A DNA stretch of 64,000 nucleotides. Origin: an uncultured Myxococcales bacterium. GTDB taxonomy: Bacteria > Myxococcota_A > UBA9042. Both the position numbers and the translations under genes were made by a program. Shown piece by piece: positions 5,726 through 63,484 of this stretch (positions are counted from its first letter, which is position 1; each line of letters starts with the position of its first letter). Location: assembly GCA_937910235.1 (NCBI GenBank), contig CALENB010000101.1, positions 2,098 to 66,097 on the forward strand, given 5' to 3'. The notes under the pieces were generated by a model. The model saw only the letters and a program-made list of their open reading frames with translations, made no database searches and was not told the origin of the DNA.

Positions 5726-5844
5726 GCTCCTCCCGCGGCGGCCTGACATCGGCCGATCTTGGCGAGAAGATAGTTTTGCGGCGCACGATTTCTGAAAACT
5801 CTCGCCAAGACCGCAAAAAACCGCAAAACCGACGTCATTGGACG

Positions 5845-42031: not shown

Positions 42032-42175
42032 GAAAACGCTCCGATAGCGCGTGGCGACGACGCGGCCAGTTTCCAACAAGACAGCCCCAAACGCGCCCCC
42101 ACATCGCGCCGCGGACGAAACACAGGGCGACGCAGGGTCGTTCGTCGAAGGGTCGTTCGTCGCAGGCTGAGGCAA

Positions 42176-42192
42176 TTGACGCATTGCGTCAA
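42176..42192. promoter_or_regulatory. Perfect 17-bp palindrome TTGACGCATTGCGTCAA in the divergent promoter region
   Basis: Direct reading. It sits between the divergently transcribed thioesterase-like gene and the acyl-CoA ligase gene, next to two 13-bp direct repeats GGGTCGTTCGTCG (42135-42147 and 42150-42162). Confidence 0.5.
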
Positions 42193-42297
42193 CCACGCGA
42201 ACCAAGGCTTCGGCAATGGTGGGGCTTTTGCAGATTTTTCGCTCGCGTAACGTTCGTCGTCGCTGTACGCTGCGCGCCACCTAACCAGGAGGGACCC

Positions 42298-43962: not shown

Positions 43963-44786
43963 TGCGACCCGTGCGCGCCGGACGCCGCCAAGCGGGCCGG
44001 AGACACGCCCGAACCCGCGTCGCCGGCCTCCTAGGCGCGGCGCTGGTCGGACCGTGGCTGATGGGCGCGATGGCGGCGTCGCCAACCGACCAAGTCGAGC
44101 TGTCGGGTCAGACCGGCCAATACGTCTTCACGCCGGTGTGTAGCTCCCGCGCCATGCAGGTGCGCCACAGCGAAGCGCAGGTCCGCTGGACCCACCGCAC
44201 CCAACCGGACACGGCGTTGGGCGCCACCGTCGTGACGCACCTCGATCTCTATGCCAGCCGCGCCATCAAGCAAGAGCAGGACAACGCCAACGGCCGCGAA
44301 GAGCTGGAGCTCTGGCTGATGCTGCGCGGTCAGGTCGGGCTCGATTGGTCGTGGTTCGGTTTTCGGCTTGGGCTCGGTGGCGGCGGCCTCTGGGACGACG
44401 CTGAGAACGCCGAGCGAGCGAGCGACGACACCTCGACGACGACGGGGACAACGAAGATGGACTGGCAGTGGGTGATCCCCGCGGTGTCCCTGCGCGTCGG
44501 GCCGCAACGCCTCCACGTTCGGCTCGCGATCGCGGATGGGACGTGGCAGCTGCGACCGACCGACCTGACCCTTGGCGTAGGGATCGGCGACGGTGGCGAC
44601 GATCCGGAGGCGCCACGGGATCTCCGAGGGTATCTGGGTGTGGGCGGTGATCTGCGCGACAGCTCGAGCGATCCGTTCTTCTACGCCGGCGCGCGCATGA
44701 ACCTCGTGACGATCAACGTCGGTCTGCAGGGCCGCGTGGGACCAGACGGCTGGTCAGGCGGGCTGTGGCTAGGCCTGCCGCTCTAG
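43963..44786 (+). CDS. Secreted hypothetical protein (possible small beta-barrel)
   Basis: Its start is coupled to the ligase stop (TGATG). It has a signal peptide and G/D-rich alternating segments, with no known motif. Confidence 0.45.
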
Positions 44787-44873
44787 TCGATCTCGCACAC
44801 CGACGGGGTGGTCGAAGACGCCCCAGCAGCCTATCTTGCCGGCAGGTTTTAGCCGCCAGCACACGGAGTCGCC

Positions 44874-45140
44874 ATGCCCCAGGATGCCCTACACGCCAGC
44901 GCCAAAGCCCTCAGCGAGGCGCTAGACGAGAACGACGCGGCGCTCAGCGTGGAGGAGCGCGCGCAGCTCGTCGCGCTGCGAGACGCCCTGACTCAGAAGC
45001 TGGACCGCAAGGATATGGCGCCGGCGCCGGAGCTCACCGGCATCATCGAGCGCGCGATCGCGACGCTCGAGGGATCGCACCCGGACCTCACCGCCGCCCT
45101 CGGAGTCCTGGCGGAGACGCTGAGCGAGCTGGGGATCTGA
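44874..45140 (+). CDS. Small helical protein (88 aa), hypothetical
   Basis: Compact ORF between two co-oriented genes, predicted all-helical. Confidence 0.4.
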   Translation: MPQDALHASAKALSEALDENDAALSVEERAQLVALRDALTQKLDRKDMAPAPELTGIIERAIATLEGSHPDLTAALGVLAETLSELGI

Positions 45141-45145
45141 GCGCC

Positions 45146-46231
45146 ATGACCGCACCCAGCCGATCCACGCACGCCCAGTCCAAATACACGCCGTCCACGC
45201 ACCACCATCGGCCTCTCCTGTGGGCGCTGCTCAGCCTAACGGTCGCCTGCAGCAGCGGCGCAACCGACGCGAACAGCGGCGCTCTTGCCAGGCGAAGCGG
45301 CGACACGGCGCAGGTCTGGGAGGTTGGTGACGGGAGCGGCGACACCACGGCTGGCCTAGTGGATACGGGGCTGACGGACGCGGCTCTGGCCGACTCAGCG
45401 CCCTCCAAGGCGGACGCCGACCCAGATGCGGCCGGGCGCGCGAGTGGCGGCGACGGTTCAGCGGCGACGGCGCTGTGCAGTCACGGCACCGTGATCGTGC
45501 AATGCAGCTACAAGACGGAGGTCCTCAGCATCGGTTTTCCGCTCGATTCGCAGCGCAGCGTGCATTGGCAGCTGCCCCTCGGCGAGGCCCCGACCGGCGG
45601 TTGGCCGTGGGTGCTGATCTTTCAGGGCTCGTTCTTCTCCGCCGACCAAGCCTGGACCGCGACCCCGCTGTCGGCGTTCGGAGCGTTGTATCTGGTCGAG
45701 ACGATCGAGGCGCTACTGGGGGCCGGATACGCCGTGCTGACGCCCGAGGCCGCCGCGAGCGGCACCACATTCTGGAACACCAACGTCATGCCGTGGCGCG
45801 CCGCTTGGTCCAGCTCACCCGACGCCGCCTTGATGAAGGTGCTGTTCGCAGCCGTACAGGCCGGCAAATTCGGGCCGTTGGACCCCAAGCGGCGATTTGC
45901 CGCAGGCGCCTCAAGTGGCGGGTACATGACGAGCCGCATGGCGATCGCCTACCCCGGCACGTTCCGCGCGCTGGCCATCATCGCGGCGGCCTACGCGACT
46001 TGCGCTGGTTCGCTCTGCCTAGTGCCGTCGTTACCGGCCGACCATCCGCCTACGCTGTTCATGCACGGTCAGCTCGACTTGGTGGTGCCACAATGGACCG
46101 CGGAGCTCTACAAGGGCGCTCTGGACAAGCAAGGCACGCCGACGTCCCTGATCAGTGATCCGCTTGGGGGGCACAGCTGGCCGGCGACCGGCGCCAAGGC
46201 GATCCTCGAATTCTTCGGCGAGCATCCGTAG
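45146..46231 (+). CDS. Secreted alpha/beta-hydrolase esterase, LpqC/PHB-depolymerase-like
   Basis: Lipobox (LSLTVACSSG) and a nucleophile elbow GASSGGYM in a secreted esterase layout. The ORF is open from 44765 but the signal peptide starts at 45146. Confidence 0.55.
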   Translation: MTAPSRSTHAQSKYTPSTHHHRPLLWALLSLTVACSSGATDANSGALARRSGDTAQVWEVGDGSGDTTAGLVDTGLTDAALADSAPSKADADPDAAGRASGGDGSAATALCSHGTVIVQCSYKTEVLSIGFPLDSQRSVHWQLPLGEAPTGGWPWVLIFQGSFFSADQAWTATPLSAFGALYLVETIEALLGAGYAVLTPEAAASGTTFWNTNVMPWRAAWSSSPDAALMKVLFAAVQAGKFGPLDPKRRFAAGASSGGYMTSRMAIAYPGTFRALAIIAAAYATCAGSLCLVPSLPADHPPTLFMHGQLDLVVPQWTAELYKGALDKQGTPTSLISDPLGGHSWPATGAKAILEFFGEHP

Positions 46232-46265
46232 CCAAGTCTGCAGACGCGCGAGCGCAGCCGCAATT

Positions 46266-46281
46266 TTGTGCAGCGCAACAA
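46266..46281. promoter_or_regulatory. Predicted PhaR operator copy A: TTGTGCAGCGCAACAA, directly upstream of a TTGACA -35 element
   Basis: Palindromic TTGTGC-N3-GCAACAA. The same motif recurs at 46376, 56621 and 57783. Confidence 0.5.
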
Positions 46282-46375
46282 TTCACAATTGACAGCAGTT
46301 GTTCGGAGAACTACCGTGTCGTCGGCGTTTGAGGACTTGTCTTCTCGCGTCGACAACCACGGTGTCGCGTCCATT

Positions 46376-46390
46376 TTGTGCAGCGCACCA
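46376..46390. promoter_or_regulatory. Predicted PhaR operator copy B: TTGTGCAGCGCACCA, between the putative promoter and the SDR start
   Basis: Half-site TTGTGC-N3-GCAC, 30-50 bp upstream of the SDR start codon. Confidence 0.45.
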
Positions 46391-46438
46391 TAGCCCTCTC
46401 AAGCTGGTTAGCGCCGCTTGGGCGGTCGGAGCAACGAC

Positions 46439-47185
46439 ATGGATTTGAAAGACCTGAAGGTCATCGTCACGGGCGCCGCTAATGGCATGGGCACACATTT
46501 TGCCAATCAGCTCGCGGCCGCAGGTGCCTCCGTCGCGGCGGGGGACATCGACGTTGCCGGACTCGAGCGGCTCGCGCCCGGGATCCACACCCGCCGCCTC
46601 GACGTGACCGACGATGCAGACCTAACGGCCTTTGTTGACTGGGCGGCGGCGCAGATGGGGGGCCTCAATGGCCTCATCAACAACGCGGGCATCATCCGCG
46701 ACGGGTTGTTGGTGCGGAGAGACCGCAAATCTGGCGAGATCACCAAACTGTCGCGGCAGTTTTGGGACGACGTGCTCGCGGTCAACCTCACCGGCGCGAC
46801 CATGATGGTGCGCGAGACGATCGCCAAGATGATCGAGATCGAGCAATTTCCCGGCGTGATCGTCACCCTGTCGTCGATCTCAAGGCACGGCAACGCGGGG
46901 CAGAGCAACTACGTCGCGGCCAAGGCGGCGCTCGCGGCCAACACGCTGACGTGGGCACGGGAGTTCTCGCGATATGGCATCCGCTTTGGCGCGATCGCGC
47001 CAGGGATGGTGGCGACGCCGATGACGGCCGGCATGAATGAGAAGGCGCTCGCGGCGCTGACGGCCCGCATCCCGGTTGGTCGCATCGGGTTGCCTGAGGA
47101 CATCTGGCAAGCGATCCGGTTCGTGCTGGAGTGCGACTATTTCAACGGTCGCACCATCGATGTAGACGGCGGCCTGTCGATGTAG
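46439..47185 (+). CDS. Short-chain dehydrogenase/reductase (FabG/PhaB-like 3-ketoacyl reductase)
   Basis: TGAANGMG Rossmann motif and a YxxxK catalytic segment (NYVAAKAA). Possible acetoacetyl-CoA reductase role given the PHA gene context. An alternative start lies at 46418. Confidence 0.7.
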   Translation: MDLKDLKVIVTGAANGMGTHFANQLAAAGASVAAGDIDVAGLERLAPGIHTRRLDVTDDADLTAFVDWAAAQMGGLNGLINNAGIIRDGLLVRRDRKSGEITKLSRQFWDDVLAVNLTGATMMVRETIAKMIEIEQFPGVIVTLSSISRHGNAGQSNYVAAKAALAANTLTWAREFSRYGIRFGAIAPGMVATPMTAGMNEKALAALTARIPVGRIGLPEDIWQAIRFVLECDYFNGRTIDVDGGLSM

Positions 47186-47201
47186 GGGTCGCCGGGGGTG
47201 A

Positions 47202-48233
47202 TCAGCGGGCGTCGCGCGCAGCCCACCAGCCCGACAGCGCCGGCCACAAGCCCTGAGAAGCTGGCCGCGACACGACCCCGCCGACGTGACTGCCGGGGAG
47301 CTTCCAGACCGCCTTGTCCGTCGACGCCACGACGCCTTCAATGCAGGCGCAATCCTGCCACGGCGCGATGGCGTCCTGCTCAAACACCACGGCGAGGAGG
47401 GGGCAGGCGATCCGACCGAGGTGCACTGGGTTGCCGGTGATGGCCAGCGTGCCCGCCATCAAGGCGTTCTGCCGATAGAGCTCGTCGAGGTACCGCTTGA
47501 AGAAGTGGCCGGGCAGCGAGACGTTGTCGCTCGACCAGGTCTCCAGGGCGAGATACCCGGCCAAGAACCGGTCATTCCAAGCCCTGTCGATCAGGTTGAC
47601 GGCCTTGGCTAGCTTGAGCGTGGGTCGCAGCATCTGAAAGCTCCCCTCGAGCAGTTGCCACGGCATCAGACCAAAAGCGGCGGTGATGGCTCCCACGTCA
47701 AAATCCGGCGAGCGCGTCCATGCGCCCAACAACCCGTCGCCGTGAAATTGCATCGGCGCGGCGAGGTTGCAGACCGAGGCGACATGGGTCGCGTCGAGCG
47801 CGGCCTGGATGACGGTGAAGATGCCACCCATGCAGTACCCCAGCAGGTGGGTTTGGCGCCGGGCGCTGCTGCGGGCGACGATGCGCACGCATCGGGGCAG
47901 ATAGACGCCGCAGAGCTCGTCAAAATCAACAAACCGATCCTCGGCCTGCGGGGTGCCCCAGTCGATGATCCAGACGTCATGGCCCGCCGCAACAAGGAAC
48001 TCGACGAAGCTCTTGCCTGGCATCAAATCCAGGATGTAGTGGCGGTTGATGAGCGAGGGCACCAGCAAAATCGGCGTGGCGAAGGCGAGTCCTTCGGGCC
48101 GCGGGCGGTAACGCAGCAGGCGCAGCTTGTTCTCGCGGTGGATCACGTCCGACGGGGTGCCGCCCACGTGGGGCTTGGGTCGCCGCTTCAAAGTGACTAG
48201 GTTTTTCAGCCGCGCAAAGCCCTTGTCGCCCAC
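47202..48233 (-). CDS. phaC: PHA synthase catalytic subunit, class III/IV-like paralog (PhaC2)
   Basis: Shares ILLVPSLINRHYILDL, AGHDVWIIDWG and the GYCMGG lipase-box (Cys nucleophile) motifs with the PhaC at 58367. Confidence 0.7.
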   Translation of the reverse strand: MGDKGFARLKNLVTLKRRPKPHVGGTPSDVIHRENKLRLLRYRPRPEGLAFATPILLVPSLINRHYILDLMPGKSFVEFLVAAGHDVWIIDWGTPQAEDRFVDFDELCGVYLPRCVRIVARSSARRQTHLLGYCMGGIFTVIQAALDATHVASVCNLAAPMQFHGDGLLGAWTRSPDFDVGAITAAFGLMPWQLLEGSFQMLRPTLKLAKAVNLIDRAWNDRFLAGYLALETWSSDNVSLPGHFFKRYLDELYRQNALMAGTLAITGNPVHLGRIACPLLAVVFEQDAIAPWQDCACIEGVVASTDKAVWKLPGSHVGGVVSRPASQGLWPALSGWWAARDAR

Positions 48234-48256
48234 AACCTGCCTCCGAGTAGCCAGCG

Positions 48257-49951
48257 TTACGCGTACATCGCCGCAAACGTCTCGGCAAACATCTGATGAA
48301 CCTGCCGGCGCCTCACCTTGAGCGTCGCCGTCAGCAGCCCAGACTCGATCGTCAGCGGGCTGTGGATCACCTCAAAGCGCTTAATGGTCTCGTGACGCGC
48401 CAGCCCGGCGTTCACGGCCGCGATGCGCCGCTCGACCTCTTCTCGCAGCAGCGCTCGGACCTGGGCTTCGGACAGGTCGACCGGCTTTGCGCCCCGAAAT
48501 GCGGCCTCTGCGAGCGGATCGAGCCAGACGCCAGCCGTCAGAAAACGCCGACCGTCGCCGAAGAGCACGAGGTGTCCGACCAGATCGTCGTCCGCAAAAC
48601 GCAGCTCCACATTCGCCGGCGGCACGTTCTTGCCGCTCGCGAGCACAAAGATGTCCTTCTTTCGGTCGATGATCTGAAGAAAACCGTCCTCGGTGAACCG
48701 CCCCACGTCGCCCGTGCACAGCCAGCCATCGTCGGTGAACGCTGCGGCCGTCGCCTCCGGGTCCTTGTGGTAACCCGCGAAGATGTTGGGTCCGCGCGCC
48801 AAGATCTCGCCATCGTCGGCGAGGCGGAGCGCCACCGACGGCAGCGGCCGCCCCACCGAATCGAAACGGAACGCGTCTGGCCGGTTGAGCGTCAGCGTCG
48901 GCGACGCCTCGGTGAGACCGTACCCTTCGATGATCAGCAGACCGTTGCGATGAAAGAACTGCTTCACCGCGACGCTCAGCCCTGCGCCACCCGAGAGCAG
49001 AAAGTGGAAGCGACCACCGGTCAGCTCGCCGAGCCGCTGCGCTTGGGCCGCCTCGTCGCCCGCCTTCATCGCAAACGACGCGAGCTTCTCGAAGACCGCC
49101 GGCACGCTCATGAAGACGGTGGGCCGCACTTCGGGCAGGTGCTTGAAGAGGTCAATCGGCTCACACAGCCAGGTCTCGAAGCCCAACGTGTTGCCCAGGC
49201 ACGCCTCGCCAAAGCCGAAGATATGGCTCATCGGCAGCCACAGCAGATCGACATCGGGGGCCTCGCCATCGGGATCAGCGAGCATCGTGGCGTTGCACTG
49301 CAACCAGTCTCGGCCGTTGCTCGCGACGTTGAGGTGGGTCAGGGGCACGCCCTTGGGTAGCCCCGAGGTGCCCGACGTGTAGAGCATCACGGCGCCGTCC
49401 TCGAGGGAGATGGCGTCGAGGAGCCGGCCGATAGCGCCTGTGTCCTCGCCGTGCAGCGCCGCGCCGATCTCAAGCGCTTCGGAGAGGTTGTGCGCCGCCA
49501 GGGCGGGGCCGGTGGCGGCGCCGTCGAAACGCACCACCTGTGGCGGCGTGGGCAGCGGCGCCAGCGCCTCGTGCAGCTTGTCGGCGAGCGGGTCCGTCGC
49601 CACAAACACAAAACTGGCGTCGCTATGACCCACCACGTGCCGCACCTGCTCAGCGGTGCAGCTCGCATACACCGGCACCATCACGCCACCCGCTGCCTGG
49701 ATAGCCAGCGCGGCCGTCATCCATTGCACGCTGTTTGGCGCCAAAATCGCCGCCCGATCACCCCGCTGCAGGCCCGCTGCGCGCAGCCAGAGGGCGAGAT
49801 GCTGAATGTCTGCGGCGAAGGCCCCCCAGGTCACGTCGCGCCAGCCATCGCCGTCGGGGACGTGAAAACGCACCCGTTCGCTGCGGGAGGGCAGCGCGTC
49901 AAAGACGATGCAAGGCGCCGGCTTGGGGGCGAGGTAGGGCGTAGGATCCAT
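48257..49951 (-). CDS. AMP-dependent acyl-CoA synthetase/ligase embedded in the PhaC2 operon
   Basis: LYTSGTSGLPKGV AMP-binding motif. Gaps of 3 nt and 23 nt to its flanking genes imply one transcript. Confidence 0.75.
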   Translation of the reverse strand: MDPTPYLAPKPAPCIVFDALPSRSERVRFHVPDGDGWRDVTWGAFAADIQHLALWLRAAGLQRGDRAAILAPNSVQWMTAALAIQAAGGVMVPVYASCTAEQVRHVVGHSDASFVFVATDPLADKLHEALAPLPTPPQVVRFDGAATGPALAAHNLSEALEIGAALHGEDTGAIGRLLDAISLEDGAVMLYTSGTSGLPKGVPLTHLNVASNGRDWLQCNATMLADPDGEAPDVDLLWLPMSHIFGFGEACLGNTLGFETWLCEPIDLFKHLPEVRPTVFMSVPAVFEKLASFAMKAGDEAAQAQRLGELTGGRFHFLLSGGAGLSVAVKQFFHRNGLLIIEGYGLTEASPTLTLNRPDAFRFDSVGRPLPSVALRLADDGEILARGPNIFAGYHKDPEATAAAFTDDGWLCTGDVGRFTEDGFLQIIDRKKDIFVLASGKNVPPANVELRFADDDLVGHLVLFGDGRRFLTAGVWLDPLAEAAFRGAKPVDLSEAQVRALLREEVERRIAAVNAGLARHETIKRFEVIHSPLTIESGLLTATLKVRRRQVHQMFAETFAAMYA

Positions 49952-49954
49952 CGC

Positions 49955-50422
49955 TCAAAGCTCCTTGCTGCGCTTCTTGGAGGCCGGTTTTGCGGCCGGT
50001 TTTGCCGTCGGTTGGGCGTCAGGCTGTGCGGTCGGCTGTGCGGTCGGCTGTGCCGCCGCTGTGACGGCTCGCACCGTCTGCAGGGCCTCGATCAGCACCG
50101 CGTCGCGCTCGGCTAAGGCGCTGACCAAGGTTCGGATCTCGTCTCGCTGCACCGCGAGCTGCTCCTCCAAGTCCATCATCCGGCTGCCGAGCTGATGCAC
50201 CTCGTGCAGCATCCGCTCCTGGTCCCGCTTCACGGCCACGCCCGCCTGCCCCCACAGGGTCGCCGATTGGTGGTCGGCCTTGGCCTTGGCCTTCGCAGCC
50301 GCGGTGAGCATGGCGCCAGCGGGGCCGAGCAACATGGGGCTCTTCATCACCTGTTCCATCCACGTCGCCGTAGCGTTCTCCCATGCGTCGAAGCCGCCTT
50401 TCCAGGTTTTCCAGGTGTCCAT
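49955..50422 (-). CDS. Small Trp-rich/coiled-coil protein, putative PHA synthase partner subunit (PhaE/PhaR-subunit-like) or phasin
   Basis: 155 aa. The N-terminal W-x2-W-x6-W segment and C-terminal coiled coil resemble the 147-aa protein upstream of phaC at 57924. It is the first gene of the PhaC2 operon. Confidence 0.4.
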   Translation of the reverse strand: MDTWKTWKGGFDAWENATATWMEQVMKSPMLLGPAGAMLTAAAKAKAKADHQSATLWGQAGVAVKRDQERMLHEVHQLGSRMMDLEEQLAVQRDEIRTLVSALAERDAVLIEALQTVRAVTAAAQPTAQPTAQPDAQPTAKPAAKPASKKRSKEL

Positions 50423-50522
50423 GTTCGCTCCTTGTGGCTAGTAGTCGTCGGTGAACGGGTGTCGTCGGTGCTGTCTTGTTGTCGGTGATGGCTTGTCGTC
50501 GCGGTGTAAAACCAAGTGCCTG

Positions 50523-50568
50523 GCGCCGCCCTCAGCCGCCAGCTCGCGCTCACAAGCTGAGGCGGCGC
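50523..50568 (-). terminator. GC-rich hairpin (13-bp stem, 19-nt loop) overlapping the 3' end of the lipoprotein gene
   Basis: GCGCCGCCCTCAGC ... GCTGAGGCGGCGC. It separates the 5-gene operon from the PhaE-like operon. Confidence 0.35.
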
Positions 50569-51473
50569 AGCTCCGAGGCGGTCTCAAAGTCAGCTTTCGT
50601 CTCATTTCTCAGGCTCGTGGCCCGCGCCACCTCCCCGAGGCACTCGAATAGAAACGACACCTGCTGCTCGGTGATCGTCGGCCCGATCGCGGGCGTGATG
50701 GTCAGCTTGGTCCGCACGCGGAGGGTCTGGGTCAATGTCAGGTCCGGTAGCTCGAGCCGGCCGGTGGCGTCGACCGAGACCTCGTACGTGTCCTCGCCGA
50801 TCCACGGCAGACCGTAGAGCTTGCCGTTCGACACCTTGCCCTTCGAGGTCCAGGAGCGCCCTTTCTCGAGCGGAAAGCGCAGCACAGCCACGGGCTGCTG
50901 GTACACGAGCAGCGACTGGCCATCAGCCGGCGACTCCTCGCGGGAGGCCGTGCCCAGCAACCACAAGCCCTGAACATCGCGGCGGTAGACGGCGTCGAAG
51001 CGGCCGCCCGCATCCAGCCCTACGGTGAAGGCGTCCGCGGCGAAGTGCGCTGCGTACCAGCGCCCAGAGACCGGCGTCGCGGTGAAGCTCGCGAGTCGAT
51101 CGGTGCTGCTGCGTTCAGACCAATCCCACACCTGCTGGCCTTTGTCGTTGACGAAGCCCTTGAGGTCGACGGGCACGTGCAGCTCCGCCGGGCTGACCCG
51201 AAACCTCGCCGGGATCCCCATGGCGGCGACGAGCTCGGAGGCGTCGATGTGCCCGTCGAGGTTCGGAATGCAGGCGGGCCCGTTCCCCACCGCGGGCACA
51301 TACGGCAACAGCGGCCCGGCTTGCCCATTCTCGGCGGCACAGGCACAGGCGATGAGGCACCCCAGGGCGACCGCGACGCGGGAGCGCGCCGCCACGCCGC
51401 GATCGAGCCGGATTTGCGGGCTGTTGGCGGGTCGCGACCGCTGCGGGTTTATCATCAGGGGCTCGTGGCGCAT
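50550..51473 (-). CDS. Lipoprotein, paralog of 53991-55043, conserved C-terminal DFETASELRRL tail
   Basis: Lipobox (ALGCLIACAC). Aligns along its length with the other lipoprotein. An alternative longer start at 51521 would overlap the upstream gene. Confidence 0.55.
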   Translation of the reverse strand: MRHEPLMINPQRSRPANSPQIRLDRGVAARSRVAVALGCLIACACAAENGQAGPLLPYVPAVGNGPACIPNLDGHIDASELVAAMGIPARFRVSPAELHVPVDLKGFVNDKGQQVWDWSERSSTDRLASFTATPVSGRWYAAHFAADAFTVGLDAGGRFDAVYRRDVQGLWLLGTASREESPADGQSLLVYQQPVAVLRFPLEKGRSWTSKGKVSNGKLYGLPWIGEDTYEVSVDATGRLELPDLTLTQTLRVRTKLTITPAIGPTITEQQVSFLFECLGEVARATSLRNETKADFETASELRRLSL

Positions 51474-51484
51474 CGATCGTTCCC

Positions 51485-53086
51485 TCAGAAAGTGTACTGC
51501 AGCGTCAGCCGCGCCAACCACGCAGACTTGGCTTGTAGCCCAGCGGCTGGATTATCCAGGCCCGACAGTGGCAGCAGCCACGCGCCCTGGAGTGCGGCGA
51601 TGAAGCCGTCACGGCTCTCGTAACGGATGGTGGGATCGATCTCGACACCCAAGGGTCGTGTGCCGCCCGGCGTCGATTGGGCCTCGACCGCCCAGGCCGC
51701 GACGGCAGCGAGGTCGAGCTGCAACGTGCCCGCGCCGAAGTCTGCGACGCGGTGATGCACGTGCGGCCGCAGGTAGATCGCGTCGGTCACGCGCCCGAGC
51801 AGCTCGCGGAACAGGATGCGATCGACGCGGTAGTCCGAGTGAAAGCGAAAGTTGTCGATCCGCGTGTCCGCCGGCGGGCTCGCCTGGGGACCGTCGAGCT
51901 CGCCCGGCTGCGGGTAGCCTGCGCCCACGGGCTGGGCCGCGCCGAACCCCGGGGCCGGGTCGCCGCTGGCGTAGCCTGCGTCCAGCCCGCCACCGAAACC
52001 CTGCTTCGGGTCGCCGAAGTCGGTCTGGAGCGCCGCGCCGATCTGCAGCGACTCGACGGGATCCCGATAGAGGGCGCCCGGCAGGAGCGTGCCCTGCTCA
52101 ACGGTGCCGGAGAGCACCGCGGCTTCGACCTCGACGCGAAACCGCGCGCCGCGCCATCGCAACCAGAGGTCACCGGCGAGCGCCGAGAAGTTGCGCGGCA
52201 CCACCGAGGCCGAGGTCAGCGCGCCCGACGCGGACTGGCTCGGGTCGACGTTCGGCAGCCAGCTCGCCGGTACATCCAGCTCCTGGGTGCGGCGCGACAG
52301 CCACAACCCAGCGTCGAGGGTGGTGCGGCCAGCCCGAGCTCGACGCGCGAACGTGGTCTCATCGGCGAAACGCAGCACGGCGAACGTGATGGTTCGCACG
52401 TCATCCCGAGGATCGAGGTCGATGGTGCGGCCGGGCGCGGTCCGCGCGACCTGCGGTCCCGTCGCCGAGAAGTCGTAGGCGAGCGCCCAGATGAGCCCGG
52501 CGATGGGGGTCACAAACGCGATGCGGTCGGCGGCGTCTCCCGTGTCGCTCTCCATGCCATCGCCGCCGTGGGTCAAGATCCCCAGCCCCCAATGGCTGCC
52601 CATGCGCCCCGCAGCCAGCACGCCGAACGGGGTGACGGTCTCGGCCCACACGCGACGAAGCCGGATCTGCGCGCTCTCAGGCGCCTGCCCCGTTGCGCCG
52701 AGCGGCGCGCCGTCAGGGCTGGCGCCGAGGCCCGTGCCGTCCATGACGTCCAGCCGCATGTGAATGGCCAGACCGCCGCGCGGCGCGAAGATCGACAAGT
52801 CCGTGCGCAGCCGCATGTCGGCGTGGGTCAGCATCGCGGCTGTGGGGTCGGACAGCGGCACGGGGAAGAACATGCGCCCAGAGGGGGTCGGTCCGCGGTC
52901 CAGATCCAGGTTGTTGAGCGCTTCGCCCCGCAGCCGCAGCGCGCCATGCACCTCGACAGCGGTCGTCGCGCGATCGTGCAGGCCTTGTCCTAGCTGCGTG
53001 AAGGTCTCTGCGGCGGTCGCAGGCGCCACGATGCCGCTCGCCAGCAAGGTTGTAGACGCCCAGAGCGCCAGCGTTGTCGCCCTCAT
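51485..53086 (-). CDS. Outer-membrane beta-barrel protein (FadL/porin-like), hypothetical
   Basis: Signal peptide (TLLASGIVAPATAAE), alternating beta-strand pattern and a C-terminal aromatic residue (LTLQYTF). Start overlaps the hydrolase stop by 4 nt. Confidence 0.5.
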   Translation of the reverse strand: MRATTLALWASTTLLASGIVAPATAAETFTQLGQGLHDRATTAVEVHGALRLRGEALNNLDLDRGPTPSGRMFFPVPLSDPTAAMLTHADMRLRTDLSIFAPRGGLAIHMRLDVMDGTGLGASPDGAPLGATGQAPESAQIRLRRVWAETVTPFGVLAAGRMGSHWGLGILTHGGDGMESDTGDAADRIAFVTPIAGLIWALAYDFSATGPQVARTAPGRTIDLDPRDDVRTITFAVLRFADETTFARRARAGRTTLDAGLWLSRRTQELDVPASWLPNVDPSQSASGALTSASVVPRNFSALAGDLWLRWRGARFRVEVEAAVLSGTVEQGTLLPGALYRDPVESLQIGAALQTDFGDPKQGFGGGLDAGYASGDPAPGFGAAQPVGAGYPQPGELDGPQASPPADTRIDNFRFHSDYRVDRILFRELLGRVTDAIYLRPHVHHRVADFGAGTLQLDLAAVAAWAVEAQSTPGGTRPLGVEIDPTIRYESRDGFIAALQGAWLLPLSGLDNPAAGLQAKSAWLARLTLQYTF

Positions 53087-53994
53087 CTCGCGCCTTCCTG
53101 CAGAAAGGACCGCAAGTCCGCCGTGGAGGCCGCCGCCGCTTCGATCATGGGGAAGTGTCCGCAGCGCGGGTAGAACTTCAGCCGCGCTTGGGGCAGGTCG
53201 GACGCGAGACGCCGGGCAAATCGCGGCATCGAGATGCGGTCATCCCGCCCCCAGAGCAGCAGCACGGGCTTCTGGATGCGGCGATAGGCGGGCTGCATCT
53301 CGGCGAAATGCTGACCCCGCACCGCCGCCAGCGCCGCCGCCCGGGTGCCTGGTCGCTTGAGGGCGAGCTGCAGCTCATCGACAAACGCCTCGGTGAGAAT
53401 GGATGGATCAAAGAAGCCCGTCGCCAGCCGCTCCTCCGCGCGTTCGGTGTAAAAGAGCCGAAAAATCGCCTCGCCGAGGCCACCCACGGCGGCCCAACGG
53501 AAGAACGCTGGGATCTGGTCGTCGTAGACCCAAGCGTCATACAGCGCCACGCGCTCGACCCGATCCGGGGCAGCGATCGCCAACGCCAGCGCCACCGAGG
53601 ACCCCCAGGAGTGGGCGACGACGGCGAAGCGCTTCACGCCCCTGGCATCGAGCAGCTTGAGCACCAAGCGCGCCTGCGCCTGGGGGCTGTAATCACCCGC
53701 TGGCCGGTCGCTCCAACCAAACCCCTTGAGATCCAATGACAGCACGCGGTGGGTGCCGCGCAAGGCCTCGTCGACCCCAACCCAGGTCTCGAGCGCCGAG
53801 GCGAAGCCGTGAAGCAGCACCACCGCCGGTCCCTGCCCGCGGTCGGTGTACCGCACACGCACGCCGTCGATGCGCTGCCAAGCCGCGTTCTTCGGCTCGC
53901 CGCGCATGGCGCCCTGATGAAAGGACAAGCAACCGCTCGCCGACAGCGTCAGCAGGCCCAGCAGCGCGACTATGGGGTACGCGTGACGCTTCAC
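53083..53994 (-). CDS. Secreted alpha/beta-fold hydrolase lipoprotein
   Basis: A GTG start gives a lipoprotein signal (VKRHAYPIVALLGLLTLSASGC). HGF oxyanion motif (VVLLHGFAS) and nucleophile elbow AHSWGS. The GTGA overlap with the upstream gene stop suggests translational coupling. Confidence 0.65.
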   Translation of the reverse strand: MKRHAYPIVALLGLLTLSASGCLSFHQGAMRGEPKNAAWQRIDGVRVRYTDRGQGPAVVLLHGFASALETWVGVDEALRGTHRVLSLDLKGFGWSDRPAGDYSPQAQARLVLKLLDARGVKRFAVVAHSWGSSVALALAIAAPDRVERVALYDAWVYDDQIPAFFRWAAVGGLGEAIFRLFYTERAEERLATGFFDPSILTEAFVDELQLALKRPGTRAAALAAVRGQHFAEMQPAYRRIQKPVLLLWGRDDRISMPRFARRLASDLPQARLKFYPRCGHFPMIEAAAASTADLRSFLQEGAR

Positions 53995-55043
53995 GGCGTG
54001 AGCCTGCGCAGCTCGGAGGCGGTCTCGAACTCGTCGCTCGTCTCGCCGTCTTTGGACCGCGCGGCGGCGACCGTGCCGAAACACTCGGTGGCGAAGAGGA
54101 ACGAACGCACGGTGGTGGTCAGCAGGCCAATCTGGCGGGTCAGCAGGGTCCGCACACGCAGCGCCGGGAAGTCGCCGAAGGGGGTCTTCACGGTGCCCGA
54201 GGCGTCCACCTCGCTGCCGTAGCTCTCGCTGTAGATCACGATCACGCCCTTGGCGAGGCCACTCACCGACGCCTTAACCTGCCATTTGGCCCCGATCTTC
54301 AGGGGAAAAGCCAGCAGCGGCACGGGTGGGTCGTACACCAAGCGCGTCGCGAACAAGCTGTTGTCCTTCGACACCACGCCGCGCAGGAGCAGGGCCTTAC
54401 CGTTGGCCTCGAACACCCCGAGCAGATCGCCTGAGGGAGCCATCGGCGCGGCATAACTGGCGCCGGGATAGTAGCTAGAAAACCAGAGGTCTTTGACAGG
54501 CAGGGTCTTGACCAGCACGTCTTGGTCGCCAGTCATCTTGCCCGAGAAGTCCCACACCCGCTGGCCCCCGGCGACGATCTCGCCCTTCAAGTCGACGGCG
54601 GTGTTCTCGGCCACCCGGAAGGTCGCGGCCAGGTTGGGGCCATAGGGCGCCTCGGAGGCTGTGATGGTGCCGTCGTGGTTCGGTTTGCACGCGCCAGCCT
54701 GGCCGCCAGTGTCACTCACACCGACATCGGCGGTTGGGAGGCTCGTGTCAGCAGCCGAGCCGGAGCCGTCGGACCCGGAGGCGACGGCGCCATCCTGCCC
54801 CGACGCGGCCCCGTCGCCGGTCTCCCAGCGGGTCGGGAAGCTGCCGTCCGCGGCGTCCGCGACCGACGCCGGCGCGCACGTGCCGTTGGATTGGCAGATG
54901 CTCGACGCACAGTCAGCGTTGACGTTACAGGACGCGATCGCCGTCTCGGCGCCGCAGGCCACGCCGACGACCACGCTCAGCGCGCACGCCGCGGTCACGC
55001 GAAGCCGCCGGAGGGCGGTCGCGCGCGGTGCGCTCATCTTCAT
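53991..55043 (-). CDS. Lipoprotein, paralog of 50550-51473, C-terminal DEFETASELRRL tail
   Basis: Signal MKMSAPRATALRRLRVTAACALSVVVGVACG with a Cys-rich N-terminal segment, then a domain that aligns with the other paralog. Confidence 0.55.
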   Translation of the reverse strand: MKMSAPRATALRRLRVTAACALSVVVGVACGAETAIASCNVNADCASSICQSNGTCAPASVADAADGSFPTRWETGDGAASGQDGAVASGSDGSGSAADTSLPTADVGVSDTGGQAGACKPNHDGTITASEAPYGPNLAATFRVAENTAVDLKGEIVAGGQRVWDFSGKMTGDQDVLVKTLPVKDLWFSSYYPGASYAAPMAPSGDLLGVFEANGKALLLRGVVSKDNSLFATRLVYDPPVPLLAFPLKIGAKWQVKASVSGLAKGVIVIYSESYGSEVDASGTVKTPFGDFPALRVRTLLTRQIGLLTTTVRSFLFATECFGTVAAARSKDGETSDEFETASELRRLTP

Positions 55044-55138
55044 CTTGTTCCAGGCCAACCTCATGTCGCCTCCCTCTCTGCCTGAGTGCGGCTCGCGAGC
55101 CGTGACGCGCCGCTCTTGCCTGGGCGCGGTGCCGATCG

Positions 55139-56437
55139 CTAGCTTGCGGAGGCAGCGTCGCTCGTCACCGGGCCGGTCACGGCGGCGCTGGCTGGATCCA
55201 TCGCTGCGGCCCCGACACGCGCGCGGCTGCCGGTCTCCATCAGCCCCATCGCCGGCACGACGATGAGCAGGTGCGCAAACGCCAACAGCCCGAGCGCCGC
55301 GCTGAAGCCGCCCGCGCCTGCGACCGCGCCCGTGGCCACTGGCAGCAGGAAGCCGCCGAGCTGGCCGACAAGCAGCAGCAGACCGAGCGCCGCGCCGGCT
55401 CGACTGACGCCAACGCCGGGGAGCTCGAGCGGCAAGGTGAGGACCAAGGGCGCAAAACAACCGCCGCCGATCGCGGCTACCGCCAACCACAGCCCCGGAG
55501 ATCCGGGCACGATCGCCATGATACCGAGGGCCGCCGCCGCGAGCATCGCGCCGCCAATGATGAAGGGACGCCGCAGGCCGACCTTGTCCGAGAGCCACGC
55601 GCCGCCCAGGTTCGCGACCCCCGCCACGCCAAGCCACGACGCCACCGCGACGCCTACTTCGGACGCGCTCATGCCCGCGTCGGTGAGCAAGCGCGGCAGC
55701 GAGCCGAGCAGCGCGAGGTAGCCACCAAAGAGCAGCAGCTGAATGCCCGCGACCCGCATCAGTTGGGCGTTCTTGGCCAACTTCAACACATCGGCGAGCC
55801 CTGCATGTCGCGAGAGCGCCGCCCGGTCGCGCACGAGCCACAGCCACAGCAGCCCGGTCAGCACCATCGCCACACCGGCGGCCACCATCGCCATCCGCCA
55901 GCCTCCCAGCATCGGCGCGAGCCAGGTCCGCGCCACCAACACCGTGATGGCGGTGCCAAAGGTGTAGCAGATGAGCGCGATGCCGTTGGCGCGACCCAAG
56001 TTCTGCAGCGGGACGTGGGAAGCCAAGATCTTCGGGATGGCGGGGGCCACAAATCCGACGTGCAAACCAAATCCCAACATGGCGATCGCCATCGTCCACG
56101 GCCCGGTAGCGAGGGCGCGGGAGGCGCAGGCCAACGCCCCTACCATGATCGCGAGCCCGGCGACCCAGCGCGCACCCCAGCGGTCCACGGCCGCGCCGCC
56201 CATGGGCGCCGCCACGGCGATCCCAAACGGCGCCGCGCCCCAAACCACCCCACCCATCGCATGCGAGATCGACAGATCGGCGGCGATGTCGGGCATCAGT
56301 GGCGGCAACAGCGACCACCCCAAACCACCGCCAACACCCTGCATGGCGCCAGCGAGCGCAGTGACCAGCACCGGCCGCGCAGGAGCGCCCTGGAGCACGT
56401 CCTGTATCCCGCTCTCGATCTTCGCTTGCACCGTCAT
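55139..56437 (-). CDS. MFS transporter
   Basis: 12-TM layout with Gly-rich helices. Start chosen at MTVQAKIES; the ORF is open to 56536. It is the first gene of the 5-gene operon and is divergent from phaR. Confidence 0.65.
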   Translation of the reverse strand: MTVQAKIESGIQDVLQGAPARPVLVTALAGAMQGVGGGLGWSLLPPLMPDIAADLSISHAMGGVVWGAAPFGIAVAAPMGGAAVDRWGARWVAGLAIMVGALACASRALATGPWTMAIAMLGFGLHVGFVAPAIPKILASHVPLQNLGRANGIALICYTFGTAITVLVARTWLAPMLGGWRMAMVAAGVAMVLTGLLWLWLVRDRAALSRHAGLADVLKLAKNAQLMRVAGIQLLLFGGYLALLGSLPRLLTDAGMSASEVGVAVASWLGVAGVANLGGAWLSDKVGLRRPFIIGGAMLAAAALGIMAIVPGSPGLWLAVAAIGGGCFAPLVLTLPLELPGVGVSRAGAALGLLLLVGQLGGFLLPVATGAVAGAGGFSAALGLLAFAHLLIVVPAMGLMETGSRARVGAAAMDPASAAVTGPVTSDAASAS

Positions 56438-56620
56438 CGTCGCTCTCCTCGCTGGCCTCGCCGCGCCCTGAACTGCCTCGCCGCGCCCCGAGCGGCCGCG
56501 AGAGGCTACGGTCACCCGGCTGTGTGGGCGCGCCACCGCGTCGCGGATGCGCCACAGCGGCCGGGCGAGTGGGAAGCGAGCAAAAGCTAGGGGCTCGCGG
56601 GGCTCGCGTCAAGCGCTATT

Positions 56621-56635
56621 TTGTGCGCTGCACAA
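56621..56635. promoter_or_regulatory. Predicted PhaR operator copy C: perfect palindrome TTGTGCGCTGCACAA upstream of phaR, divergent from the MFS operon
   Basis: Perfect inverted repeat. A second palindrome GTGCTGCATTCAGCAC lies at 56646-56661. Confidence 0.5.
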
Positions 56636-56939
56636 TACCGCTTTGCGTGCTGCATTCAGCACCAAGTCATCAGGCTGGTCGCGAGCTAAAGGTTCGTGTA
56701 GGCTGGCTTTCGCGGCGTAAATGGTGCGTAGTTTGCGGTGTTCTCCAGACAGAATTCACGCCCAGTCAGACACGACCCGAGACGGAAAACGGCATTGGAT
56801 GCTGCAGACGCGGTGCTGCGACGCTGCGGCGCAACAGTCCGGCGCTCCACCGGCAGAGACCCCCGCTTCAAGATCCACAACGACGACGACACGACGAGAC
56901 ACACCGCACCAACCCGCTGCAGCCAACCAGGGAACCGAC

Positions 56940-57764
56940 ATGATCACCATCAAGAAGTACAGCAATCGTCGTCTCTACGACACCGACCGCAGCAGCTACA
57001 TCACCTTGGAGGACCTCGCCGAGCGCATCTGCAAAGGCGATGACGTGCGGGTGGTCGACGCGTCCACCGGCCGCGACCTGACTCAGGCGACGCTGGTGCA
57101 GATCGTGCTTGAGAGCCGGGGCGCTGCGCGCTTTCTCCCCGCGCCGCTGCTGGTCGCCATGATCCGCATGGGGGATGACGCCCTGGCCGAGTTCCTCGGT
57201 CGCTACATGAGCTGGGCGCTGCAGGTGTACTCGGGTGTGCGGAGTCAGGCGCGCACCATGATAGGCGCTTTTGGGCCGGGTTCATTCATGAACGGCGGCC
57301 CCTTCACGGGCTTCATGGGGGGCACACCATGGCAGGGAGGCGCCGGCGGCCACGGTGGGGCGGGATGGGGTCAAGGTCCGCAGGGCTGGAGCCCACACGG
57401 CGCGGGTGCACAGGGCGGGCAGGGTTGGGCCGCGCAAGGTCAGCCGATGCCTTGGGGGGCGCCCGGTTGGCCCCTTCCGCCACAGCCCGAGCCGCCGCGG
57501 TCTGAGGCCTCGTGGTCGCCGCCGTCGGCGTCCGATGTCCCGCCGCCGGAACCCGTGTCGGCGGCCCAGGCAGCCTCATCCACGCCAGGGTCATCCACGG
57601 CAGGGTCATCCACGGCAGGGTCATCCACGCCAGGGTCATCCACGCCGGCGTCATCCCCTGAAGCCACCGCTCCCGACCCGGCCCGCTCCGAGCTTGCTGC
57701 GCTGCGGCGAGAGTTGGATGAGCTTCGGGATTCATTGAAGGCAGGTGCTCGTTCAAAGAAGTAA
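56940..57764 (+). CDS. phaR: PHA synthesis repressor PhaR (PHB_acc_N DNA-binding domain) with Ser/Thr/Gly-rich C-terminal repeat tail
   Basis: N-terminal MITIKKYSNRRLYDTDRSSYITLEDL signature. The ORF is open from 56721 but the conserved domain starts at 56940. Confidence 0.85.
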   Translation: MITIKKYSNRRLYDTDRSSYITLEDLAERICKGDDVRVVDASTGRDLTQATLVQIVLESRGAARFLPAPLLVAMIRMGDDALAEFLGRYMSWALQVYSGVRSQARTMIGAFGPGSFMNGGPFTGFMGGTPWQGGAGGHGGAGWGQGPQGWSPHGAGAQGGQGWAAQGQPMPWGAPGWPLPPQPEPPRSEASWSPPSASDVPPPEPVSAAQAASSTPGSSTAGSSTAGSSTPGSSTPASSPEATAPDPARSELAALRRELDELRDSLKAGARSKK

Positions 57765-57782
57765 AATTCGTGCCGGCCAAAT

Positions 57783-57798
57783 TTGTGCGGTGCAACAA
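57783..57798. promoter_or_regulatory. Predicted PhaR operator copy D: TTGTGCGGTGCAACAA, immediately upstream of a TTGACG-N17-TAGGTT promoter
   Basis: Same motif and the same operator-then-(-35) arrangement as copy A. It is upstream of the phaE-like/phaC operon. Confidence 0.5.
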
Positions 57799-57923
57799 AA
57801 AACCGCTTGACGCGTGCTGCTCCCGCTCTTAGGTTGCGTGAGCCGACGCCGCAATGGAGCGGCGACCGCAGCCAGCCCAGCATACCAACGACAAGCGCTA
57901 GGGCGGAGAGAGGGACACGACAC

Positions 57924-58367
57924 ATGGCCAACAAGACCGAGACCGGCGCGACGGACACCGCAAACAACACCACGTCGACGAGCGACGCTCCGCAACCGCA
58001 GCAGACCGCCCCCACCTGGCCGGATTGGCGCGCCTTCACTTGGCCGCAGCAGGGCGAGGCGCCGCAGATGTTTCAGATGCCGCAGATGTTCCAGATGCCG
58101 CAGATGCCCGAGATGCCGGGCCACGAGCTGTGGAGCAAGGCGGTTGCTGACAACGTCGCACGCATGGAAGGCCTCGTCGGCGCGCTGCAAGCGCAGTCGC
58201 AGCGCCAGTCGGAGCAGGCTGAGAAGGCCATCGACGAGCTGGCGCGGCTCACCAAGGCCAGTCTCGGTTACGGCCTGGAGCTGCAGGCCCGTGCGCACGG
58301 CATGTTCATGGACAACGCGCGCAAGGCGTCGGCGGCGGCCGCCACCAGCAAGGGCGTGGTGGCCTGA
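57924..58367 (+). CDS. Small PHA synthase partner subunit (PhaE/PhaR-subunit-like) with MFQMPQ repeat and coiled coil
   Basis: 147 aa with a W-rich N-terminus (TWPDWRAFTWP). It is translationally coupled to phaC (TGATG overlap). Confidence 0.45.
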   Translation: MANKTETGATDTANNTTSTSDAPQPQQTAPTWPDWRAFTWPQQGEAPQMFQMPQMFQMPQMPEMPGHELWSKAVADNVARMEGLVGALQAQSQRQSEQAEKAIDELARLTKASLGYGLELQARAHGMFMDNARKASAAAATSKGVVA

Positions 58368-59446
58368 TGTTCGGGCTGAATCTGCGTGAGGGGGCTGCGC
58401 CCTACGACGTCACCATGCGCGACGGCAACAGTCGCCTGCTCCGTTTTCGGACCACGGCCACTGGCGCGGGGCGACCGATTCTGCTTGTGCCGTCGATGAT
58501 CAATCGTTGGTACGTGCTCGATCTCGGCCCCGGCGCCAGCCTCGTCGCCGCGCTGGTGGAGGCGGGCCATGACGTCTGGTGTCTCGACTGGGGTGTGCCT
58601 GGAGACGAAGATCGACATCTGGACTGGGAGGCGGTGACCGCGCGGCTGCAGCGGACGGTGCGCTTTGTGCGGCGGCGTACCGGCGGCGACCCGGTGGGTC
58701 TACTGGGCTACTGCATGGGTGGGACGCTAGCCGCGATTCACACAGCGCTGCATCCGGAGGACGTGGCAGGGCTCGTCAATCTCGCCGGCCCGATCGATTT
58801 TGCCAAGGCCGGCGTGCTGGCGCACTTCGTCGATCCGCAGTGGTTTGATGCCGAAGCCATCGTGCAGGCCGGCAACCTAAGCCCAAAGCAAATGCAGGAC
58901 GGGTTCACCGCGATCTCACCGAGCAAGCAGATCGCCAAGTGGATCATGCTGGCCGACCGCGTGATCAGCGCGACGGATGCCGACGCACGCACAAAGGGCA
59001 TCGGGAGCTTCGCCCGCCTTAACGGGTGGGCGTCGGACAACATCCCGTTCCCGGCCGCCGCGTACACGACGTGGATTCGCGACCTCTACCAGCGCAACGA
59101 CCTAGCGCAGCGGCGCCACCACGTGGGCGGACGGCGGGTGGAGCTTGGCCAGATTGGCTGCCCAGTGCTCGTCATCAGCGCCGCCAACGACGCCATCTGT
59201 CCACCCGAGTCGGCCACGGCGTTGCTTGATCAGGTCGCGTCCACCGACAAGCGTCACGTCCAAGTGCCCGGTGGCCATGTCGGGGCTGTGGTTGGTCGAC
59301 GGGCGGCCAAGCTGCTGTACCCCGCCATCTCGGCGTTCTTCGAAGAGGCGGCACCGTCACGTGCCCCTAGCGCTTATTCGGGGTCACACGACGCACCCGA
59401 CCCTGTCGGCGTGCCATGGTCTGCCGCACACCGCCCGAGCTGTTGA
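58367..59446 (+). CDS. phaC: PHA synthase catalytic subunit, class III/IV type
   Basis: Collinear with class III PhaC (ILLVPSMINRWYVLDL, GHDVWCLDWG, GYCMGG lipase box, ASDNIPFP...IRDLYQRN, active-site His region GGHVG). Confidence 0.8.
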   Translation: MFGLNLREGAAPYDVTMRDGNSRLLRFRTTATGAGRPILLVPSMINRWYVLDLGPGASLVAALVEAGHDVWCLDWGVPGDEDRHLDWEAVTARLQRTVRFVRRRTGGDPVGLLGYCMGGTLAAIHTALHPEDVAGLVNLAGPIDFAKAGVLAHFVDPQWFDAEAIVQAGNLSPKQMQDGFTAISPSKQIAKWIMLADRVISATDADARTKGIGSFARLNGWASDNIPFPAAAYTTWIRDLYQRNDLAQRRHHVGGRRVELGQIGCPVLVISAANDAICPPESATALLDQVASTDKRHVQVPGGHVGAVVGRRAAKLLYPAISAFFEEAAPSRAPSAYSGSHDAPDPVGVPWSAAHRPSC

Positions 59447-63407: not shown

Positions 63408-63484
63408 GGGTCGGGGAGACAGGATTCGAACCTGCGACATCCTGCTCCCAAAGCAGGCGCGCTACCAGGCTGCGCTACTCCCCG
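63408..63484 (-). tRNA. tRNA-Pro (TGG)
   Basis: Reverse complement reads CGGGGAGTAGCGCAGCCTGGTAGCGCGCCTGCTTTGGGAGCAGGATGTCGCAGGTTCGAATCCTGTCTCCCCGA with anticodon loop TTTGGGA. CCA is not genomically encoded. Confidence 0.85.

Follow-up and report, generated by a model that had tools for sequence, protein, structure and literature searches.

We have found four copies of a 15-bp dyad at a polyhydroxyalkanoate (PHA) gene island in a 64-kb stretch of genome from an uncultured Myxococcales bacterium (contig CALENB010000101.1), the whole of which is referred to here as the window. Judged by its sequence, the motif is a canonical PhaR box, the dyad matching experimentally supported PhaR boxes elsewhere, and a phaR gene lies within the same island. 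We put the probability at roughly 0.7 that the four sites are PhaR operators, the island being repressed by bound PhaR and derepressed by polymer granules. Binding by the window PhaR, the sign of the regulation and granule titration are what we infer from the analysis given below. On the matrix, comparative and promoter evidence, a different regulator or a chance origin of the sites is very unlikely.

Results

Four PhaR boxes in the window

All four sites possess a TGC-N3-GCA core in which a purine and a pyrimidine (R/Y) flank the central base, and T and A occupy positions -7 and +7, respectively. They score like experimentally bound sites under a matrix made from such sites alone, and they are located in promoter regions at PHA-related genes, in linkage to phaR. 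An earlier, sequence-only reading of the window had described four intergenic copies of the dyad. Each copy was found exactly at the position listed in Table 1, and their intergenic location was confirmed by a gene map obtained through open reading frame calling based on G+C content at third codon positions (GC3), together with Pfam and NCBIfam scans. According to this map, ~95% of the window is coding and the intergenic share is 4.6%. The optional "(A)" in the motif as first proposed proved needless, since a single ungapped 15-bp dyad, T(-7)-N2-TGC-R-N-Y-GCA-N2-A(+7), fits all four sites. Site 3 had also been called a perfect palindrome, which is true of its 6-nt arms but not of the central GCT, which is not self-complementary.

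Two scoring matrices were used, each with a 21-nt window that encloses the 15-bp dyad. The first was built solely from the 20 Sinorhizobium meliloti PhaR sites rated 'efficient' by gel shift (Table 3, PMC12542648). With this matrix the four sites occupy ranks 1-4 in 64 kb at 22.8-26.5 bits, the fifth match reaching 16.0, and none of 300 shuffles attained 22.8 bits. The 20 training sites themselves range from 3.3 to 29.8 bits (median near 23.6), and the window sites score within that range. The second matrix was derived from 14 TGC-N3-GCA boxes adjoining phaR in five related loci (L002-L006), with the window sites excluded. It likewise places the four sites at ranks 1-4 (22.6-26.3 bits; next, 18.9), and the top score in 300 dinucleotide shuffles was 14.1 on average, with scores of at least 20 bits averaging 0.01 per shuffle. 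Matches to the 12-mer TTGTGCNNNGCA number six on both strands (site 3 counted twice) versus 0.77 expected, a count reached by none of 100 shuffles. All of these rankings and shuffles apply within this 64-kb stretch of genome. A fifth match to the 12-mer, at 41704 on the minus strand, was set aside as a probable chance occurrence; it lies within DUF4442 coding sequence and scores 16 bits with the full-length matrix.

Boxes 1 and 2 constitute an 18-nt direct repeat (94% identical) with centres 110 bp apart. Looping between them was considered and dropped because 110 bp is ~10.5 helical turns, which puts the two centres out of phase. The flanks of the four boxes show no repetition beyond the promoter module described below.

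Several weaker sequences in the window were recorded. Box-like sites at 5771-5791 (~50 nt ahead of the gene for a beta-eliminating lyase) and at 28758-28778 (the start of a gene for an S13 D-Ala-D-Ala carboxypeptidase) score 12-19 bits, within reach of the shuffles, and are candidates only. A perfect 17-bp palindrome, TTGACGCATTGCGTCAA, is present at 42174-42194, in the spacer that separates the minus-strand DUF4442 gene from an acyl-CoA synthetase gene on the plus strand. It fits the degenerate S. meliloti PhaR consensus (CGC..GCG core) yet scores only 11 bits with the matrix from that species, and could serve PhaR or a different regulator as an operator.

A metagenome contig from ENA, L001, is 99.97% identical to the window, with 5 differences in the 17,061 nt shared. 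Three of the five fall in the 159-nt spacer between phaR and the gene for a 147-aa protein (57765-57923), and the one at 57789 (G to A), next to the centre of box 4, keeps the consensus purine.

Boxes accompany phaR in related loci

Searching metagenomes with an alignment of PhaC-like 2 proteins yielded a comparative set of 80 loci, and 927 kb of these loci were scanned for boxes by means of the S. meliloti matrix, with 17 bits as the threshold. There were 97 box matches at or above this threshold, 59 of which are in the 4% of sequence that flanks phaR. The spacer between phaR and the divergent operon holds 29 (in 26 of 41 loci, at 2.1 per kb), the region between phaR and phaC1 holds 30 (in 26 of 27 loci, at 1.3 per kb), and the remaining 38 lie elsewhere, at 0.043 per kb. 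Box density around phaR is 30-50 times that found elsewhere (binomial p ~1e-56). Assembly redundancy does not explain this enrichment because the matches comprise 58 distinct 21-mers. The boxes accompany phaR across ~40 loci in which PhaR identity is 38-70%, and in the cultured myxobacterium Minicystis rosea (CP016211.1) the two best matches in 20.5 kb flank phaR (A7982_05333) likewise. The relatives of the window PhaR come from Myxococcota and Bradymonadales metagenome-assembled genomes. Together with the matrix ranks, the co-localisation of boxes and phaR in relatives supports the earlier proposal that the motif probably marks a PhaR regulon.

Gene order in the related loci is widely conserved, reading (SDR)<-PhaC1<-small protein<-PhaR on one side, where SDR stands for short-chain dehydrogenase/reductase, and 357-aa protein->hydrolase->TIGR04551->307-aa protein->PhaE-like->acyl-CoA synthetase->PhaC2 in the divergent direction. 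PhaR is the only DNA-binding protein in this conserved cluster.

Three further observations concern individual loci. In a low-GC Pelagibacteraceae locus (SAR11; L007), the sequence TTGTGCAATGCA and more TGC/GCA-rich sequence occur at 8040-8100, upstream of phaC and next to phaR; the box is thus retained despite wide differences in base composition. Strong box-like sequences number 12 in L016 and 8 in L030, some in coding sequence and some between operon genes, and these copies may represent additional operators within the loci or instances of a dispersed palindrome. Finally, six loci (L021, L025, L046, L055, L061 and L076) share the box-like 21-mer CCATGCTGCGGTGCACCAAGA, exactly or nearly so, at the same position of the PhaC2 coding sequence. 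This is probably a false positive caused by conserved protein sequence, and the corresponding position in the window PhaC2 gene gives no score.

A fixed promoter module

Phylogenetic footprinting of the region upstream of the small-protein gene (alignment A1, five loci) revealed that conservation within the spacer is confined to the box, an A-rich tract, TTGAC and a TA that follows after 17-18 nt; the position of box 4 is kept in this alignment. Across the related loci, TTGAC is found 15-17 nt from the box centre toward the small-protein/phaC1 operon for 26 of 31 boxes, and 14-17 nt from the centre toward the divergent operon for 17 of 29. Taking all boxes together, 43 of 60 have TTGAC 14-17 nt away in the direction of the regulated operon, and one has it in the opposite direction.

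The same register is seen in the window, where sigma-70-type promoters are predicted next to boxes 1, 3 and 4 (Table 1). The TTGAC of the SDR promoter begins 16 nt after the centre of box 1, as in relatives; that of the major facilitator superfamily (MFS) operon promoter is 16 nt from the centre of box 3 on the minus strand; and that of the 147-aa gene/phaC1 promoter, for which alignment A1 shows no variation in TTGAC or in the TA of the -10 element, is 17 nt from the centre of box 4. If standard promoter geometry applies, the box is centred near -51, and the 21-bp site ends a few bases before the -35 element. On either side of phaR, the promoter modules of sites 3 and 4 are inverted copies of each other over 41 nt. 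Box 2 has no adjoining TTGAC or other -35 element; it is situated ~60 nt downstream of the predicted start site and 56 nt before the ATG of the SDR gene.

These arrangements alter what the sequence-only reading had said of individual sites. Site 3 had been assigned to the promoter of phaR itself; its predicted -35 and -10 elements are on the minus strand, and it is therefore a promoter element of the operon that runs from the MFS gene to PhaC2. None of the 29 boxes in the spacer between phaR and the divergent operon has a TTGAC pointing to phaR. The only candidate near phaR for the gene's own control is the weak box at 56819-56839. The two sites said to flank the putative promoter of an SDR/PhaB-like gene do so, box 1 upstream and box 2 downstream in the predicted leader, but the SDR is FabG-like and scores far below the cut-off of the PhaB model. 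Site 4 does precede the phaC1 operon, as had been proposed, but the first gene of that operon, taken earlier to be phaE-like, lacks a PhaE signature.

The PhaR protein

The PhaR homolog that had been noticed at 56940 was verified by a match to PF07879 (PHB_acc_N) of 88.1 bits versus a cut-off of 25 (E-value 4e-25), which places it in the family, and its homologs carry the JGI name PhaR. At 274 aa, the window PhaR is ~80-100 aa longer than most homologs. Residues ~115-245 are G/P/W/S-rich, of low complexity and predicted to be disordered, followed by a C-terminal helix in the AlphaFold model. Six tandem 15-nt repeats inside phaR, at 57554-57673, encode SSTPG/SSTAG units of this linker. The PHB_acc_N domain (residues 1-60; 56940-57120) is modelled as strand-strand-strand-helix-strand-helix with a predicted local distance difference test (pLDDT) score above 90. 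This confident N-terminal domain had no significant neighbour among the solved structures with which it was compared, and the fold by which PhaR-family proteins bind DNA appears to lack structural characterisation. An Rfam scan of the whole window gave no match in the long phaR leader; its only matches were two tRNA genes, at 21119-21191 (plus strand) and 63411-63484 (minus strand).

Genes of the island

The genes and sites are listed in Table 1. Against NCBIfam, the SDR scores 265.7 bits with PRK08217 (cut-off 298) and 133 bits with the PhaB model (cut-off 436). In 11 of the 29 related loci carrying phaC1, the SDR gene is directly downstream of phaC1 and hence under a box-4-type promoter; in the window it lies at the opposite end of the island and is preceded by two boxes, 1 and 2. 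The two placements together suggest that the SDR is part of the same regulon. The 155-aa protein is identified as PhaE-like through its orthologs, 9 of 14 of which match PF09712 (PHA_synth_III_E; best 1.2e-5), the window copy itself giving no match. The PhaE-like gene is therefore probably the one at 49955-50422 and not the one before phaC1. Both PhaC-like proteins carry GYCMGG, in agreement with the G-X-C-X-G catalytic box, yet their scores of 222 bits (PhaC1) and 246 bits (PhaC2) stay under the 365-bit cut-off of TIGR01836, the model for class III PHA synthases. The 147-aa protein encoded before phaC1 gave no family or PhaE signature in Pfam, NCBIfam or relaxed per-ortholog Pfam scans; it and its ~90-aa orthologs are helical.

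An island with two PhaC-like synthases, a ~95-aa PhaE-like protein, an acyl-CoA synthetase, a TIGR04551 protein, a hydrolase, PhaR and two paralogous unknown proteins is common in metagenomes (window 47202-59446; L002-L088) and also occurs in Minicystis rosea.

Table 1. Predicted PhaR boxes, promoters and genes in the window. Box scores are given in bits for the related-loci matrix and then the S. meliloti matrix.
Feature	Position	Strand	Description
S9-like hydrolase gene	44765-46231	+	
PhaR box 1	46266-46281		TTGTGCAGCGCAACAA; dyad 46266-46280, centre 46273; matrix window 46263..46283; directly upstream of SDR promoter; 25.3, 25.6
SDR promoter (predicted)	46289..46317	+	Sigma-70-type, from sequence; TTGACA 46289-46294, 17 nt, TACCGT 46312-46317
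PhaR box 2	46376-46390		TTGTGCAGCGCACCA; dyad the same, centre 46383; matrix window 46373..46393; in predicted SDR leader; 22.6, 23.8
FabG-like SDR gene (3-ketoacyl reductase)	46439-47185	+	Pfam adh_short_C2, 7.8e-47; predicted target of boxes 1 and 2
Nine-gene operon, MFS gene to PhaC-like synthase 2	47202..56437	-	
PhaC-like synthase 2 (PhaC2) gene	47202-48233	-	GYCMGG box; 246 bits vs TIGR01836 cut-off 365
Acyl-CoA synthetase gene	48257-49951	-	
PhaE-like 155-aa protein gene	49955-50422	-	Ortholog matches to PF09712
Genes for 307-aa unknown, TIGR04551-family protein, alpha/beta hydrolase, 357-aa unknown	~50550-55064	-	
MFS transporter gene	55139-56437	-	
MFS operon promoter (predicted)	56584..56612	-	From sequence; TTGACG 56612-56607, 17 nt, TAGCTT 56589-56584
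PhaR box 3	56621-56635		TTGTGCGCTGCACAA; dyad the same, centre 56628; matrix window 56618..56638; in 502-nt spacer between MFS gene and phaR; 23.7, 22.8
Weak candidate box	56819..56839		CGACGCTGCGGCGCAACAGTC; ~110 nt upstream of phaR ATG; 10.8 (related-loci matrix), in shuffle range
phaR	56940..57764	+	N-terminal PHB_acc_N DNA-binding domain, long low-complexity linker, C-terminal helix
PhaR box 4	57783-57798		TTGTGCGGTGCAACAA; dyad 57783-57797, centre 57790; matrix window 57780..57800; 16 nt past phaR stop; 26.3, 26.5
147-aa gene/phaC1 promoter (predicted)	57807..57835	+	TTGACG 57807-57812, 17 nt, TAGGTT 57830-57835
147-aa helical protein gene	57924-58367	+	No known family; operon with PhaC1, 57924..59446
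PhaC-like synthase 1 (PhaC1) gene	58367-59446	+	GYCMGG at residues 112-117; 222 bits vs TIGR01836 cut-off 365
mfd	59367-63068	-	

Discussion

Proposed regulation and its alternatives

PhaR repression relieved by granule titration is established in Ralstonia eutropha, S. meliloti, Paracoccus denitrificans and Herbaspirillum seropedicae (PMC12542648, PMC12849132, PMC3206438), and we propose that the island is controlled in the same manner. The 15-bp dyad would suit a symmetric dimer or a dimer of dimers. Boxes 1, 3 and 4 would each belong to the conserved promoter module, with the centre 16-17 nt upstream of TTGAC, at ~-51, and an A-rich tract in between. The three promoters would drive the SDR gene, the leftward MFS-to-PhaC2 operon and the rightward 147-aa/PhaC1 operon. 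Without polymer, PhaR bound next to the -35 element would hinder RNA polymerase, as would PhaR bound to box 2 in the 5' leader of the SDR gene. As polyester granules form, PhaR would be titrated onto them and the island would be derepressed.

Several results weigh against this proposal. A strict consensus promoter/terminator scan of the three regions did not call the predicted promoters, the -10 elements of which are weak; because the strict -10 rule of the scanner called none, the promoter assignments rest on cross-locus conservation. Neither inspection by eye nor the matrix found a second box over the -35/-10 elements or the start of any of the three promoters, and at repressed promoters that have been validated, a further box inside the core promoter is usual (PMC12542648, PMC12849132). 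R. eutropha PhaR is able to activate from upstream sites (PMC12849132). The window PhaR falls below the TIGR01848 equivalog cut-off (88.1 vs 109.45 bits) and gave no match to PHB_acc (PF05233) at E <= 1e-3, and for these two reasons granule sensing may differ in this organism. Some close homologs do carry PHB_acc, as weak matches.

The foremost alternative is that PhaR acts as an activator, recruiting RNA polymerase from ~-51 to promoters with weak -10 elements, so that DNA-bound PhaR would switch the island on. The boxes are strictly upstream of -35 in a fixed register with no second box in the core promoter, and the -10 hexamers (TAGGTT, TAGCTT and TACCGT) are poor. There is precedent in R. 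eutropha, where PhaR activates phaP3 from upstream sites (PMC12849132), and in S. meliloti, where PhaR has activated targets (PMC12542648). We nevertheless regard activation as unlikely. A centre near -51 is off the usual activator positions, which are -41.5 or -61.5, and the location of box 2 in the SDR leader is typical of a roadblock. Phasin and PHA-gene promoters with strong boxes are repressed in every species studied (PMC12542648, PMC12849132, PMC3206438), and the R. eutropha site directly upstream of -35 is a component of a repressing arrangement (PMC12849132, PMC3206438).

That the boxes are bound by some regulator other than PhaR, recognising a similar dyad and linked to the island by chance, is much less probable. 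TGC-N3-GCA is a short core and PhaR binding is predicted from sequence, which leaves room for such a protein; however, a matrix from validated PhaR sites selects exactly these four, the boxes track phaR in ~40 loci, and no second DNA-binding gene is conserved in the cluster. Least credible of all is the view that the sites arose by chance, or that they belong to a dispersed palindromic repeat, and regulate nothing. The 8-12 box-like copies in each of L016 and L030 (some inside coding sequence) might speak for it, but the observed scores were never reached by shuffles, all four sites are intergenic although coding sequence makes up 95% of the window, their position next to TTGAC is kept in many genomes, and outside the promoter module the sequence around the copies shows no repetition.

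Implications

PhaR operators at this island would extend the PhaR box, essentially unchanged, beyond the Proteobacteria to Myxococcota-like organisms. The regulatory arrangement is an ordinary one, in a lineage for which it had no earlier description, and the understanding of PhaR regulation is unchanged by it. Our full-text literature searches found PHA genes reported in Myxococcota genomes and no description of PhaR operators there. What is gained is a precise and testable regulon core of three promoters with one common architecture. Further interest lies in the fixed promoter module and in the island with its two synthases, which is conserved and largely uncharacterised. Minicystis rosea is cultivable and carries the island, and the prediction is testable there.

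A bolder version of the PhaR-operator proposal, which we consider doubtful, is that, in a widespread island of Myxococcota type, a PhaR variant with a long disordered linker in place of PHB_acc controls two synthases, an acyl-CoA synthetase and envelope/transport proteins from the ~-51 box. The envelope/transport proteins would be the MFS protein, the TIGR04551-family protein and the two paralogous unknowns. If this were so, the upstream-only register could reflect activation, or a form of sensing unlike classical granule titration, and the island could couple the uptake of exogenous acids to polyester synthesis.

Comparison with known PhaR systems

Among Alpha- and Betaproteobacteria, PhaR boxes are familiar elements (PMC12542648, PMC12849132, PMC3206438). 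The S. meliloti PhaR (AniA) motif is WNWD2NYGCRNYGCRNH2WNW, and the listed sites include ACATTGTGCGGCGCACAAAGT (PMC12542648). As in the window, the S. meliloti sites are dyads with AT-rich arms, for example phaP1 TTATTGTGCACTGCACAAATT and ppdK ATTTGGTGCACTGCAACAAAA, and in both organisms the boxes are close to the -35 element of PHA-related promoters (PMC12542648). The two systems differ in three respects. The phasin promoters of S. meliloti have two boxes around -35 (PMC12542648), whereas each window promoter has one, upstream of -35 at a fixed distance; S. meliloti is an alphaproteobacterium whose PhaR contains a PHB_acc domain, in contrast to the window PhaR with no detectable PHB_acc; and its targets are phasin and depolymerase genes of known families (PMC12542648), whereas those in the window belong to a two-synthase island.

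For R. eutropha H16, the PhaR consensus is YTKNTGCRNYGCANMAR, with conserved positions 1-4 and 7 from the centre (PMC12849132). This consensus fits the window sites, and the consensus of the clade is likewise invariant at positions 1-4 and 7. The repressed phaP1 promoter is described with a PhaR site directly upstream of -35 (PMC12849132, with Potter et al. cited therein; PMC3206438), an arrangement like that of the window. phaP1 also has a second site over the transcription start (PMC12849132), whereas none was found in the window.

In H. seropedicae and Rhodobacter sphaeroides, autoregulation of the regulator has been shown or proposed (PMC3206438), whereas the box in the spacer upstream of phaR in the window would serve the promoter of the divergent operon. 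The sequence-only reading had likened the TGC-N3-GCA core to PhaR sites of alphaproteobacteria, and the S. meliloti and R. sphaeroides motifs do match it. The H. seropedicae PhbF motif, TG[N]TGC[N]3GCAA, was footprinted over 24 bp, and the PhaR motif of R. sphaeroides FJ1 is CTGC[N]3GCAG (PMC3206438); the essential TGC and GCA triplets of both are common to the window sites.

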